NCBI GenBank assembly: GCA_944337235.1
Contig: CALVLK010000003.1
Span: forward strand, 1,289-65,288
DNA length: 64,000 nt
Source of the DNA: an uncultured Clostridia bacterium
GTDB taxonomy: Bacteria > Bacillota > Clostridia > Christensenellales > Borkfalkiaceae
Direction of reading: 5' to 3'
The notes under the pieces are model-generated. The model made no database searches. It was not told the origin of the DNA and saw only the letters and a list, made by a program, of their open reading frames with translations. Position 1 is the first letter of the stretch. Every line of letters begins with the position of its first letter. Shown here in pieces: positions 47,433 to 64,000 of this stretch. A program made the translations under genes and the position numbers.

Positions 47433-47729
47433 TTACAGTCTTCCTGCGATCGCAAGGATGATGATATAGAATATGGTGAGCGCAGCCAGGGTGCACAGCA
47501 TGGGGATGACCATCTTGCGCGCGACGGTAAAAAAGGTGCGCAGCTTTTCTTTGGCGGTGGACTTGCGGCGGGGCGGGCGTGTTTCGCCCTTATGCGTTCC
47601 GCTCATGTCCGCAACCGTAGAGCCGTCGTCGTAATAGACGATCTTTACCTTGCGCTTGGGCTCCTCTTGCTCTGTTTGGGACTGCTTGTCCTTATGTTTC
47701 AACTCATCCTCCTGAAATGCGCCGATCAT
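47433..47729 (-). CDS. Small tail-anchored membrane protein, translationally coupled to oppF
   Basis: 98 aa. ATGA overlap with the oppF stop. Charged N-region and a single C-terminal TM segment MVIPMLCTLAALTIFYIIILAIAG. Confidence 0.5.
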   Translation of the reverse strand: MIGAFQEDELKHKDKQSQTEQEEPKRKVKIVYYDDGSTVADMSGTHKGETRPPRRKSTAKEKLRTFFTVARKMVIPMLCTLAALTIFYIIILAIAGRL

Positions 47730-48850
47730 TCCTGCGGGTAGCAGTGGCAGGCAACGAAGTGCCCTGGCTCCTGCTCGCGATAGACAGGCGCAATGTGCGA
47801 ACAGATCTCCTTTGCCACAGGGCAGCGGGTGTGGAACTTGCAGCCCTTGGGCGGATTTGACGGGGAAGGAATATCCCCCTGCAGCACGATGCGGTGCATC
47901 TTGACGTCGGGATTGGGATTGGGAACGGCAGAGAACAGCGCCTGCGTGTAGGGGTGCAGCGGGTTGGAGAAGATGCTCTTCTTGTCGCCGAACTCTACCA
48001 TGGAACCGAGATACATGACGCCGATCTTATCCGAAATGTGCTTGACGACGGAGAGATCGTGCGAGATGAAGAGATAGGTGAAGCCCATGTTCTGCTGCAG
48101 GCTCTTGAGCAGGTTGATGATCTGCGCCTGAATGGACACGTCGAGCGCGGAAACCGGCTCGTCGCAGATGACAAGTTTGGGATTGACGGTGAGCGCACGC
48201 GCAATGCAGATCCTCTGGCGCTGGCCGCCGGAAAATTCGTGCGGGTAGCGCTCATAATAATAGTCCCGCAGGCCGCACTTATCCATGATGTCGAGCACGT
48301 AGTCCTTGACCTGATCCTTCGGTACGATCTTGTGCACGCGCACAGGCTCGGACAGGATGCCACCCACCGTACTGCGCGGCGGCAGCGAGGAGTAGGGATC
48401 CTGGAAGATGATCTGCATCTTGGTGCGCAAGGGGCGCATCTTCGAGGACTTATAGCCCGCGATATCCTGCCCCTCGAAGAAGATCTGCCCGTCGGTGGGC
48501 TGAATGAGTTTGAGCACCGTTCTGCCCAGCGTCGTCTTGCCGCAGCCCGACTCGCCGACGATGCCCAGCGTTTCGCCCGCCTTGAGCTTGAACGAAACGT
48601 CGTCTACCGCGCGCAGCCAGACCGTGACCTTGCCCGTAAAAGATTTTGCAACAGGGAAATATTTTTTCAGATGACGGACTTCGAGCAGCGCGTCGGGATC
48701 GGGCGGAAGCTCCTTGTCCTCCATTGCCTTGCGATCGCGCGCCTCTTGCTCCTTCGCCGCCTCTGCCGCGTCGTCAAAGCCCGCATATTCCCCCGTCGCC
48801 TCCACTTCGGGCGCGCCGGGTTCAATGATCTCATCGCGTTTCTTTATCAT
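47726..48850 (-). CDS. oppF: Oligopeptide ABC transporter ATP-binding protein (OppF-type) with acidic N-terminal extension
   Basis: Walker [18 protein letters not shown]-type signature FSGGQRQR, and a C-terminal oligopeptide-ABC domain. AAGGAG RBS favours ATG at 48850; the alternative is 48856. Confidence 0.9.
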
Positions 48851-62600: not shown

Positions 62601-64000
62601 CCCGTCGTCACATTGTTGTAGGCAAGCGTTTCATCGACAAATTCCTTATATTCGCCGCCGACGCCCGCAGCCTCGGTAATATAGATGGGTGTATCCCCCG
62701 TTGCGGAGGTGATAAGGTAGGGCGTCATCGTACCGCTGACGGATGCGACGGAAAGTGCCATTTCGTATGTGGAAGGCGAGCCGACCGTTGCACTGTCGGG
62801 GTTGGAAGTAAGCCCGAGGTTACCGTTTTTGGTGGAACCGAAGGTGGAATTATAGTCATTGGAAGCCGCGGCGACCAAGCTGATCCCCTGCGCTTCGATC
62901 GCGTCATACACGGTCTGGATCGCAACCTCATCCACCTCACGGCTGAAGCCGGCACTGGAACCGAGGGACATGTTGATGACATCTACGCCAAGCGCGACGC
63001 AGTCCTCGAGTGCGGCAAGCAGCCACGAGGTCCTTGCCCCCGAAGTCTCATCCGAAAAGACCTTCATGAAGGCGAGCTGCGCGTTGGGCGCAACGCCCGT
63101 AATCGTATCGTCGTTGCCGACGATGATGCCCGAAACGTGCGTGCCGTGTGCACTGTTGATGGGGAACACGTCGGGGTCGCCGTCTGCATAGTCATAGGCA
63201 TAGGGCACCTTGGCGTTCAGATAGACATCCGCCGCCGTAAGCCCTGCCGTGGTATTGGCAGCCGCAAAATCGCCCACCCTGCCCTGAAGATCGGAAAGGG
63301 TAATGACCTCTTCGCCCTCAAAACGGGAGACGTCGAATGCGGAGTGCGTATAATCAAGGCCTGTATCGAGCACGGCGACGACAACGCCGCTGCCGTCATA
63401 TTCCGAACCGGAACTGTCGAAGATACCCGTCTCGTACACATTGACGTCGTTGGTGACGACGCCGGGCGTGGTGTCTTCAACCGTTTCGCAGCGTTCGTAA
63501 ACCTCGCCCACGACCACTGCGGCCTCGCCGTCGAGCACCTCGCACACCTGATCGAAATATCTGGCGCGCACAAGGATCTCGAAGCCGCCGATGACGGTAT
63601 TATAGCTGTTGCCGAGCCGATACTGCACGCCCGCCCTCGTCAGGCTTGCCTGCAGTCTGTTATTTTCGCGCGTAATATTTGCCGCAACCTCGCTGCCGGC
63701 GTCCGAAAGGGCATATTCCGCCACGGTATCGTACTGCGTGCGGACCTTTTCCCCCGCCTGATAGGCGTCGAGAACGGTCTCCTCCTCCGTCATGATGATG
63801 AGCGAGATTTCTTCGTTGTCGTCGATGTCCTCGCTCAGCTTTTGTACGGTGGATTCGCTGAAATAGTCCTCAATATGGTTGTCGATGTCGGAAGCGTCGA
63901 TCTCATTGAACGTCTTGTTCTCCGCCCCGCTCTCCGCCGCAGCGGACGAAGCATCCTCCCAGACGGGAAGAACTGCAGTAAGTCCAAGACATCCGCAGAG
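56609..64000 (-). CDS. Giant cell-surface protein: I9-like propeptide, S8 subtilisin-family protease with PA insert, Big_2 domains, long BspA-type LRR array, C-terminal TM anchor (5' end beyond window)
   Basis: The frame is open to base 64000, where it reads a signal-peptide tail LCGCLGLTAVLP. Catalytic motifs VLDTGLD, HGTHVSG and SGTSMAAP. PA motif GKIALVRRGSTNFEDK. Big_2 motif SDESVVRVVNGRLIGVSEGEAYITA. LRR region about 57400-59660. TM segment about 56700-56766. Confidence 0.9.
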   Translation of the reverse strand, partial: LCGCLGLTAVLPVWEDASSAAAESGAENKTFNEIDASDIDNHIEDYFSESTVQKLSEDIDDNEEISLIIMTEEETVLDAYQAGEKVRTQYDTVAEYALSDAGSEVAANITRENNRLQASLTRAGVQYRLGNSYNTVIGGFEILVRARYFDQVCEVLDGEAAVVVGEVYERCETVEDTTPGVVTNDVNVYETGIFDSSGSEYDGSGVVVAVLDTGLDYTHSAFDVSRFEGEEVITLSDLQGRVGDFAAANTTAGLTAADVYLNAKVPYAYDYADGDPDVFPINSAHGTHVSGIIVGNDDTITGVAPNAQLAFMKVFSDETSGARTSWLLAALEDCVALGVDVINMSLGSSAGFSREVDEVAIQTVYDAIEAQGISLVAAASNDYNSTFGSTKNGNLGLTSNPDSATVGSPSTYEMALSVASVSGTMTPYLITSATGDTPIYITEAAGVGGEYKEFVDETLAYNNVTTGSVTLEYVVIPGVGRGSDYTGIDVAGKIALVRRGSTNFEDKARIARERGAAACIIFNNVSGDISMSVGAVGDYPVCSISQDDGEALVAAYEASGSGTITISTQNQAGPFMSNFSSWGPTPDLRIKPEITAHGGNITSAVPGGSYDSMSGTSMAAPNQAGVTALIRQYVKERFAGENLTDAEVTDRVYQIMMSTTDIVYNQNNLAYSVRKQGAGLANLEKATSTPAYVRTYDRDGELMGKTKLEIGDDRDKTGVYTMEFEVVNISGSALSYDVGAIVMTEGVSDTLTARGLTVVTEEGYLLSGASVSVSSVSGGSVSGNTISVAGNQTARFSVTITLSDEDKAYLDSSFENGMYVEGFITLDAASGTDIDLRVAYLGFYGDWTQAPLFDLDYFETDRDENDDTIPLEEKTLPDAYASRPIGGLYNDYIVYLGSYAFLQDPNATTINADRNHIALSNQRTGDSSGTVNSISTIYAGMLRGAKRMTLTITDQVTGEVIYEQEIYNQRKSNAGGGSTIYPSSIDVDFYVDEYDLKNNTEYMVTLTGYLDYGEDGGLSTNKRNTFSFPFVTDFQAPILTGVEYRTEYVRDTNTYRLYADLSIYDNHYSQGAVIGYIYENEPGSEYTYSLASFGRYVNALYSERNSTTVLTVELTDYMDQIKQSYNGNSYILQVYDYAQNTATYELNIPDSVLGIQFVDSTTKEPTEELTIGQYETVTMTDIVSVTPSGSWIATLNYTSSDESVVRVVNGRLIGVSEGEAYITATANSDPDISATLKVTVGPNEQGYSQPVAESFVLTGYEVNKVFYMLSSDERDLGATQAGVTVDFTTSSYSLSMFPSESVTLQYRLYAYFPDDTIVDFTSNNPNIVTVDEDGTVIAQAEGNTTISVRVMMWDPTANGGAGGYRATLYSNTVSVTVKDPYTTNSIYLMNYRGLGGEVIIPDDLRVTEIYQYAFSGYQYVAKDENDEISEEDPLYTKPVPIGDNTITKVVIPEGVEVIGAYAFANLTALEEVVLPSTLTKIQNGAFEGCTSLRTVSFGTYDANNNLVAGPNNLQFINNDAFYGCTSLENFSFGSRMVAIGDDAFAYTGLISVTLPATAQSIGAAAFYACENLRTLTINAELVKLGTEAFAYCSNLTSASINASVVPSGVFAGCTALGRNGSIALGPDVSVIGQYAFAETSVSSFTIDPENETFRTDNNGAYILSTDGTLVLVAPTATTLISTTITQIGEGVLAGNTNITTVTLPNVTEVDAYAFAGCTSLRSVTLGALTEVGDYAFMNTAITRLPTFSDELTAIGDYAFAYTMLTSATIPANITVGTLAFGGCSNLLSVTVEDGATLEAGAFMPASAYLGTYAGTMSGRYFYTFSTQYASSLRSLTIGDNVTIGASAFRGSASLTSVTLGSNIAIGDYAFYNCAALSNIDLSGVTSVGDLAFSGEGSVIYYTTVNTNGAATMPYSSAYGWTYYAEGDNMYSTRLTQANLSNASEIGLGAFAYTPLTSVTLGENAVTVGDNAFYECTALTSVTLGGTTTVGDYAFYGATQLTQTDLSGISSIGAYAFYDAALASVTLAEGATVGDYAFYRNEELSSVANLNTIEEIGARAFAETALTSADLSAAVSLGDFAFADSALTEITLSDALTDLGENPFAGCALDAFERDGASTYDISANVRVIEGVLYRVAANGGLEVITYPIASAATTYEVEEGTIRIGARAFYNSSLISVSLVRDVAAIGDRAFYGCSQLSVIEFRSMEAPVLEEQYDEAYLNEMGENGVLNLYNRAPFTGNVELTGGVTVPGLGIIAFNMWNWSSNYTNYFYGANFIDLIGEETLKDHTLIMVRPNNGTGYDTFIYGQYFDVVIDGMTAITDTTLSVIDTIMQIPTIISLEHESLIVSARAAYNALAVEQQALVAGAYDGTNYLARLTSAEAQLEYLQNQQSQDPGVDPEPEPGDGDGTVNTVGLWIAIGVLAGVIVVLGAGIVAIKLVDRKKAAQAEAGDEGGNDGNNDSESQD

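Follow-up and report, generated by a model that had tools for sequence, protein, structure and literature searches.

A giant leucine-rich-repeat-bearing S8 protease, a surface lipoprotein and an Opp-type importer share a conserved, operon-like gene block in uncultured gut Clostridia

Within a 64,000-nt stretch of an uncultured Clostridia bacterium (contig CALVLK010000003.1 of assembly GCA_944337235.1, forward-strand positions 1,289 to 65,288; hereafter the window), we analyzed a block of eight genes standing in tandem on the minus strand, from 60 nt past position 64000 down to 47433. In coding order they encode a giant S8-family protease bearing leucine-rich repeats (LRRs), a lipoprotein, an oversized substrate-binding protein (SBP), the permeases OppB and OppC, the ATPases OppD and OppF, and a small membrane protein of 98 amino acids (aa). 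We consider it likely that the block is one operon for the outside-to-inside utilization of protein in a lineage of uncultured gut Clostridia.

The protease gene extends from 56609 to beyond 64000 and encodes 2483 aa in full; its frame stays open up to the window edge, and its first 20 codons and promoter lie past the end. On an identical metagenome contig (L001) the gene occupies 951–8402, starting 60 nt past the window edge with an encoded signal peptide. It is followed, all on the minus strand, by the genes for the lipoprotein (55044–56579; 511 aa, lipobox LGAC) and the SBP (52389–55010; 873 aa, Pfam SBP_bac_5), and then by oppB (51374–52354; 326 aa, Pfam BPD_transp_1 and BPD_transp_1_N), oppC (50178–51359; 393 aa, Pfam OppC_N and BPD_transp_1), oppD (48831–50174; 447 aa, Pfam ABC_tran in two stretches and oligo_HPY), oppF (47726–48856; 376 aa, Pfam ABC_tran and oligo_HPY) and the last gene, the small membrane-protein open reading frame (ORF; 47433–47729; 98 aa). 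From the protease gene to oppD the intergenic gaps are 29, 33, 34, 14 and 3 nt, after which oppD overlaps oppF by 20–26 nt and the stop of oppF coincides with the start of the small ORF in an ATGA overlap. The 33-nt gap presumes that the SBP starts at MKKNK, 7 nt downstream of a GGAGG. The ORF listing thus agrees with the initial annotation of this DNA, which had described eight consecutive minus-strand genes with these gaps and two overlaps.

We collected related loci in two scans. An SBP-anchored scan, with one genome per species, found a relative in 449 genomes, and we retrieved the best 80 together with flanks of 10 kb; a lipoprotein-anchored scan of metagenomes gave 42 loci, 41 of them informative. 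Gene order was determined by BLAST of the window proteins against the ORFs and read within the limits of each contig. The order protease, lipoprotein, SBP, oppB, oppC, oppD, oppF, small gene was found on one strand in all 80 SBP-anchored species genomes, the lipoprotein-anchored loci had the protease upstream and the SBP downstream wherever sequence exists (41/41), and three further contigs with independent gene calls carried the same eight genes. Among the ∼120 related loci in total, the genes co-localized in each that extends far enough. The search for S8-LRR homologs next to SBP and Opp genes in related Clostridia, which had been proposed as a check, therefore gave no exception where the contig suffices.

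The carriers are metagenome-assembled genomes (MAGs) of uncultured gut Clostridia, labeled Clostridia, Eubacteriales, Oscillospiraceae or Candidatus Stercoripulliclostridium, and come from rabbit, ruminant, chicken and other guts. Their proteins are divergent, with identities to the window of 52%–68% in the S8 region, 28%–46% in the lipoprotein and 49%–66% in the SBP, and the genes remain tightly packed (median gaps among relatives of 15, 31, 25, 12, 4, −8 and −8 nt). The flanks vary: the commonest downstream ORF family occurred in 13 of 61 loci, and the upstream neighbors included GGGtGRT, thioredoxin-like and HD-domain genes. The block is thus conserved beyond background synteny, since its order is kept despite protein divergence while its flanks vary. 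When we queried again with the most divergent SBP, matches stayed in the same family (45%–53% identity), and true outgroups were not reached. Because the block was intact in every relative inspected, its members almost certainly function together.

In 15 of the 80 species there is no separate lipoprotein gene; the protease frame runs on into the lipoprotein, and the resulting fusion ORFs are 2918–2980 aa long. At the junction, the membrane helix of the protease is followed by a Lys/Arg-rich linker of 60–100 aa, a second hydrophobic helix and the lipoprotein ectodomain. This second helix stands in place of the lipobox signal peptide, and the protease anchor serves as the first helix of a two-helix hairpin that is predicted to keep both ectodomains outside the membrane. 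The fused forms, from 15 independent MAGs, are spread over three S8-similarity groups, one of which also has 20 unfused members, so they do not stem from one assembly error, and we rejected an assembly artifact as their source. In-frame fusion in 15 species provides strong evidence, at the sequence level, that protease and lipoprotein act together physically, presumably as a complex. The self-contained protease-plus-importer unit that the initial annotation had put forward is backed by this fusion together with the conserved order and short gaps.

Sequence signals and gene packing are consistent with a single operon, in which the eight genes would be co-transcribed. The only strong terminator of the block lies at 47400–47429 (minus strand), where a 12-bp stem with a 6-nt loop is followed by a T-run; its fold has a stability of −21.1 kcal/mol (z = −5.4), which none of 200 shuffled sequences equaled. 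The protease/lipoprotein, lipoprotein/SBP, SBP/oppB and oppB/oppC junctions, in contrast, folded no more stably than shuffled sequence, and promoter-like and terminator-like matches inside the block were at or below the shuffle expectation. These results fit the earlier reading that no hairpin with a T-run precedes the terminator. Strong promoter-like sites were confined to the region 5′ of the first gene. On L001, the spacer 5′ of the protease gene is ∼590 nt long and contains a perfect TTGACA-17-TATAAT at 680–708 (12/12 consensus positions), ∼240 nt upstream of the protease gene, as well as a second site matching at 10/12. Read by eye, the same spacer also has a hairpin followed by a T-run 3′ of the preceding GGGtGRT gene. 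An Rfam scan of the spacer and the start of the protease gene for a T-box or riboswitch gave no match at E ≤ 1.

Among the relatives, a hairpin with a T-run was found at none of 51 protease/lipoprotein, 74 lipoprotein/SBP, 63 oppB/oppC and 59 oppC/oppD junctions, and at two of 71 oppD/oppF junctions. Terminators separating the protease, lipoprotein and SBP genes, which had been named in advance as grounds for abandoning a common unit, were thus absent both from the window junctions and from the 51 and 74 junctions of the relatives.

By alignment, the product of the first gene is an S8 subtilase of the cell-envelope proteinase/C5a-peptidase type with intact catalytic residues. A signal peptide and an N-terminal region of ∼190 aa are followed by the S8 catalytic domain (61964–63394; Pfam Peptidase_S8, 3e-46, 158 bits vs. 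a cut-off of 21.8), which holds a PA-domain insert (62345–62557; Pfam PA, 55.9 bits, above cut-off). Next come an Fn3-like domain (PF06280; 61487–61843; Pfam fn3_5, 4.6e-07, 31 bits, above the curated cut-off), immunoglobulin-like (Ig-like) Big_2 domains (Pfam; around 59957–60061), which lie just upstream of the LRR tract, the tract itself, a helical stalk and the membrane anchor, all encoded on the minus strand. Among solved proteins, SpyCEP, C5a peptidase and cell-envelope proteinases match it most closely (E 1e-64 to 1e-53), and the SpyCEP alignment is unbroken over query residues 193–849, through the Fn3-like region. The motifs DTG, HGTHV, SN and GTSMA line up with those of SpyCEP and C5a peptidase, placing the catalytic Asp at 63365–63367, the His at 63146–63148, the oxyanion Asn at 62858–62860 and the Ser at 62150–62152 (minus strand). 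The intact D/H/S triad context noted initially is borne out by this alignment with active streptococcal cell-envelope proteinases, and all four residues are conserved without exception in the 67 full-length relatives. Catalytic residues that do not line up with active S8 enzymes, another of the grounds named in advance against the unit, were thus not what we found.

The LRR tract (57344–59803, approximate limits, minus strand; Pfam LRR_5, 8.5e-124, 407 bits, eight stretches) occurs in every full-length relative and resembles, below cut-off, the HupY/LrrG adhesin model in NCBIfam. It had been described as about 750 aa of BspA-type repeats; the repeat type holds, and the length is closer to 800 aa. 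We also noted stand-alone LRR_5 proteins of 480–780 aa a few kilobases downstream of the operon in some relatives (L012, at 19176–21254 on the minus strand; L013; L014).

The protease thus has the S8 catalytic motifs, the PA insert followed by an Fn3-like domain that marks the cell-envelope proteinase subgroup, and tandem LRR_5 repeats on a surface protein. At its C terminus, the LPXTG sortase signal of wall-anchored enzymes is absent, and a single transmembrane helix (56690–56767, minus strand, read from the sequence) is followed by a short charged cytoplasmic tail. Against the NCBIfam model of the LPXTG-anchored SGO_0316 family, the protease scored 261 bits vs. a cut-off of 1400. Lenient Pfam scans of the N-terminal 220 aa and the stalk returned nothing credible, including no Inhibitor_I9 propeptide, and we therefore do not claim a recognized prodomain.

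The second gene had been called a lipoprotein, and the lipobox of its product is canonical. The protein has no Pfam or NCBIfam family, although its own family is large, with 431 representatives at 50% clustering (E ≤ 1e-30). Its N-terminal half is beta-rich, with one sub-threshold match to the Listeria-Bacteroides repeat (Flg_new), and its C-terminal half is beta-helix-like, with weak, sub-threshold GLUG, M26_N and pectate-lyase-like matches. An AlphaFold model (predicted local distance difference test [pLDDT] 92, predicted template-modeling score [pTM] 0.81) is almost wholly beta. Comparison of the model with PDB folds gave none at E ≤ 0.001, with weak echoes of beta-helix, adhesin and ubiquitin-like (beta-grasp) folds, and a PDB sequence search returned only a spurious spherulin match (E 0.04). 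The initial annotation implied that this protein is the counterpart of PrtM, the proteinase maturase of lactic acid bacteria. We rejected a PrtM/PrsA-type identity because the confident model is beta-rich and beta-helix-like and because Pfam and NCBIfam gave no rotamase, peptidyl-prolyl isomerase (PPIase) or PrsA match at a threshold as lenient as E ≤ 1.

The SBP is a lipoprotein whose AppA/OppA-like core is broken by a largely helical insertion of ∼330 aa (residues ∼140–470, nt ∼53601–54593, minus strand, placed from the predicted structure model). The insertion is kept throughout the family, whose members are 850–980 aa long. The best sequence relative is Bacillus subtilis AppA (profile match 1.9e-17), and the best fold match of the model is AppA with a bound nonapeptide (template-modeling score 0.76, normalized to the target; 14% identity in the fold alignment). 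Against Opp4A of NCBIfam the SBP scored 72 bits, with a cut-off of 650. A W-x4-DPD stretch is invariant; we take it to resemble the DppA/OppA region with the Asp that binds the peptide amino terminus, but an alignment of the C-terminal half with solved peptide binders, made for this ligand-anchoring Asp, stopped short of the region.

The SBP and the four genes after it make up a complete five-component Opp/Dpp-type set in the order A-B-C-D-F, with all domains above their Pfam cut-offs. The statement that the genes after the lipoprotein form a full oligopeptide ABC importer accordingly holds for the five components by domain, with peptides as the presumed ligand. By NCBIfam, the permeases and ATPases are nearest to Opp, Dpp and Opp4 models, mostly under the equivalog cut-offs. 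The nearest model of OppB is Opp4B, below cut-off; OppC has an N-terminal extension and scored 327 bits against Opp4C vs. a cut-off of 350; and OppF passed the PRK11308 cut-off (420 vs. 408 bits). OppD is nearest to OppD-type models and has an insertion of ∼85 aa between the Walker A motif and the Q-loop. Its NCBIfam match to the long mycoplasma OppD model is split in a similar way, and orthologs vary in length, from 383 aa without the insert (L128, 14658–15809) through 447 aa in the window and 505 aa (L127, 14920–16437) to 670 aa (L129, 15127–17139).

The 98-aa protein has a charged N terminus, a basic stretch, the motif K(I/V)xYxDDGST(V/I)ADMSG and one C-terminal transmembrane helix. It has no Pfam or NCBIfam family, including in a lenient Pfam scan, and its gene was found in 64 related loci, where the median overlap with oppF is 8 nt. 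It may be an unrecognized accessory subunit of this Opp variant.

These parts suggest how the operon might work. A single promoter region ∼240 nt upstream of the protease gene would drive all eight genes. The protease, with its lactocepin/C5a-peptidase-type catalytic head, would be secreted and tethered by its C-terminal membrane helix, while the Ig-like domains and BspA-type LRR tract probably hold protein substrates or surfaces. The lipid-anchored beta-rich/beta-helix protein would join the protease in a complex on the outside of the membrane, where it may act as a stabilizer, a positioning factor or a substrate-binding factor. Peptides released at the surface would be caught by the oversized AppA/OppA-like lipoprotein and passed to the OppBC permease, powered by OppD and OppF, with the 98-aa membrane protein as a putative accessory subunit. 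In this scheme we infer the peptide ligand, the binding role of the LRR tract, the nutritional purpose, the co-transcription and the complex formation.

Several observations weigh against this scheme. The block contains no intracellular peptidase gene. The fold matches of the SBP include binders of nickel, opine, sialic acid, chitin oligomers and EDTA complexes that are nearly as good as AppA, and these same ligands, along with haem, are carried by family-5 binding proteins in general. The ∼330-aa SBP insertion had no credible Pfam match in a lenient scan of the sub-region, and the Opp components other than OppF score under their NCBIfam equivalog cut-offs. As for transcription, 12 of 78 relatives have a strong hairpin and T-run at the SBP/oppB junction, so that, at least in these species, transcription of the genes for the permeases and ATPases may be weaker or in part separate; the 7.4-kb protease gene may also contain an internal promoter. 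Exceptions to the gene order may exist among the remaining SBP-bearing genomes, as the best 80 of 449 were inspected. The SBP/oppB hairpins are GC-rich and reach −30 kcal/mol (e.g., L011, L012, L014, L016, L018, L026); in the window itself there is no such hairpin 3′ of the SBP gene. In ABC operons, the site after the SBP gene is the classical place to attenuate permease relative to binding-protein expression, and the hairpins in the 12 relatives suggest an attenuator within the operon, by which less permease and ATPase would be made.

A bolder form of the same idea would make the block a Gram-positive protein counterpart of the Bacteroidetes polysaccharide-utilization locus. Protease, partner lipoprotein and SBP would form one surface machine atop a modified Opp, with the variable OppD insert and the 98-aa subunit as parts of its translocator. 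The machine would cut the protein bound to it and channel the resulting peptides directly inward, and it would be a defining, vertically inherited trait of the lineage. We regard this version as possible but doubtful.

We also weighed the view that the block serves interaction with a host or partner, the LRR protease and its lipoprotein cleaving specific host or competitor proteins in the manner of C5a peptidase, SpyCEP, IgA1 proteases or dentilisin, and the transporter salvaging or sensing the products. The nearest solved relatives are indeed streptococcal virulence proteases, the LRR tract is similar to the HupY/LrrG adhesin, the C-terminal half of the lipoprotein weakly resembles the M26 IgA1-protease N-terminal/GLUG region and adhesin beta-helices, and all carriers are gut-associated MAGs. 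Yet a full importer is linked to the protease in every inspected genome, unlike the streptococcal virulence proteases, and the block is core and vertically kept in a broad commensal clade rather than an island. Such a role, which would be compatible with a nutritional one, seems to us rather unlikely as the explanation of the block.

It is quite improbable that the SBP takes a non-peptide ligand, such as glycopeptides, oligosaccharides or a metal chelate, which the protease would expose or release. The nickel, EDTA-complex, opine, sialic acid and chitin-oligomer binders among the fold matches, the low similarity to AppA (14% identity in the fold alignment) and the Opp4A, Opp4B and Opp4C scores under cut-off would all fit such a ligand. 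On the other hand, the nonapeptide-binding AppA comes out on top in both sequence and fold, both ATPases carry oligo_HPY, OppF exceeds the cut-off of a dipeptide-type subfamily, and peptides are the ligand most simply expected of a transporter so strictly linked to a protease.

Opp systems of other Firmicutes import signaling peptides. By analogy with RRNPP-type pheromones, the protease could mature a pro-peptide that Opp re-imports for quorum sensing, with the conserved small gene at the end of the block as a conceivable source of the precursor. We consider this very unlikely: there is no regulator gene in or beside the block, whose flanks vary; the 98-aa protein is unlike a secreted pro-peptide because of its terminal membrane helix and conserved, cytoplasmic-looking motif; and a 2483-aa LRR-bearing protease would be oversized for pheromone maturation. 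Chance adjacency of independent protease, lipoprotein and Opp units can in effect be dismissed on synteny and fusion: the order is the same in every one of the ∼120 divergent loci that extends far enough, the flanks vary, the gaps are short or negative, and fusion occurs in 15 species.

Beyond the operon terminator, at 47333–47360 (minus strand), lies a perfect extended sigma-70 consensus (TTGACA, 16 nt, TG-TATAAT), behind which stands a gene for an FtsX-domain membrane protein (45695–47269, minus strand; 518–524 aa), and next after it comes the S10 ribosomal-protein operon (rpsJ, rplC, rplD, rplW, rplB, rpsS). Upstream of the protease, L001 (1–358) and L127 (1–588) carry a GGGtGRT-family gene (PF14057), which we place outside the block because the upstream gene is a different one in other relatives.

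When protein is degraded in the hindgut, ammonia, branched-chain fatty acids, phenols and amines are produced. Outside Bacteroidetes and lactic acid bacteria, the organisms and genes that start this proteolysis have, to our knowledge, been little charted. The block offers a searchable genomic marker of putatively coupled extracellular proteolysis and uptake in a broad, wholly uncultured gut clade, its signature being a giant LRR-bearing cell-envelope-type proteinase, a partner lipoprotein, an oversized SBP and OppBCDF. If the surface-machine proposal were true, it would also mark protein-fermenting lifestyles in animal guts. The block further suggests that carriers may be enrichable on a protein substrate. 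The fusion is natural evidence for a cell-envelope-type proteinase working with a dedicated surface partner unrelated to PrtM. Three uncharacterized conserved parts are highlighted as well, namely, the partner protein family, the ∼330-aa SBP insertion and the 98-aa membrane protein.

The closest functional parallel we considered is the proteolytic system of lactic acid bacteria, in which a surface-tethered S8 proteinase cuts protein outside the cell and OppABCDF imports the oligopeptides, as the transporter here presumably does. PrtP of these bacteria shares with our protease an S8 domain with a PA insert, a following Fn3-like domain and a helical stalk before the anchor. Here, however, the anchor is a membrane helix instead of LPXTG, and an LRR_5 tract of ∼800 aa has been added. 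Some lactobacilli use an S-layer-type anchor of the cell-envelope proteinase instead of LPXTG. The block further differs in that the neighboring lipoprotein is not of the PrsA/PPIase type, the 873-aa SBP has a large insertion, and there is an extra 98-aa membrane protein. Finally, the lactic acid bacterial genes lie at separate loci, as opposed to one conserved, presumed operon here. The initial annotation had stated that PrtP/PrtM and Opp are encoded apart, in agreement with Lactococcus SK11, in which prtP and prtM are on one plasmid and oppABCDF2, pepO2 and pepF2 on another (PMC2827410).

SpyCEP, ScpA/ScpB and the SGO_0316 family share the aligned Asp, His, Asn and Ser, the PA insert and Fn3-like domains with the protease; these streptococcal enzymes differ in being LPXTG wall-anchored virulence factors with narrow substrates and without LRR_5 tracts. 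We know of no operon linkage of streptococcal cell-envelope proteinases to an Opp system. Among protease-lipoprotein pairs, dentilisin of Treponema denticola is the best precedent for a partnership of the kind that the fusion suggests. It is a subtilisin-family surface protease encoded in a prcB-prcA-prtP operon together with lipoprotein partners that bind it and on which its stability and presentation depend (PMC8167434); PrcB and PrcA are unique to oral treponemes (PMC8167434). The dentilisin system differs in that its partners are unrelated in sequence to ours, dentilisin is located in the outer membrane of a diderm, and the operon has no transporter.

A peptidase gene is physically tied to an Opp/Dpp-type ABC importer in the opp-pepO/pepF and dpp loci as well. 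In B. subtilis dppA-E, the peptidase gene lies within the peptide-transporter locus. These peptidases are small and act on ready-made peptides, unlike a giant surface endoproteinase. Lactococcus opp is linked with the peptidase genes pepO2 and pepF2 (PMC2827410). For the transporter itself, the nearest SBP and permease relatives are Staphylococcus aureus Opp4 (by NCBIfam) and B. subtilis App (by sequence and fold), which share the five-component architecture; the system here scores under the equivalog cut-offs, with an SBP longer by ∼330 aa, a variable OppD insertion and a sixth, small membrane protein.

We found no description in the literature of an S8-Opp operon or of LRR-bearing cell-envelope proteinases in Clostridia, nor any functional description for the only named genus among the carriers, in keeping with the initial annotation, which had not recognized a fused protease-lipoprotein-Opp unit as described. 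Database labels of these proteins read "hypothetical" or, generically, "peptide/nickel transport system substrate-binding protein." The logic of a protease plus Opp is thus known; what is new is its appearance as a single conserved operon, as we read it, with an LRR protease, a non-PrtM partner and an oversized SBP.

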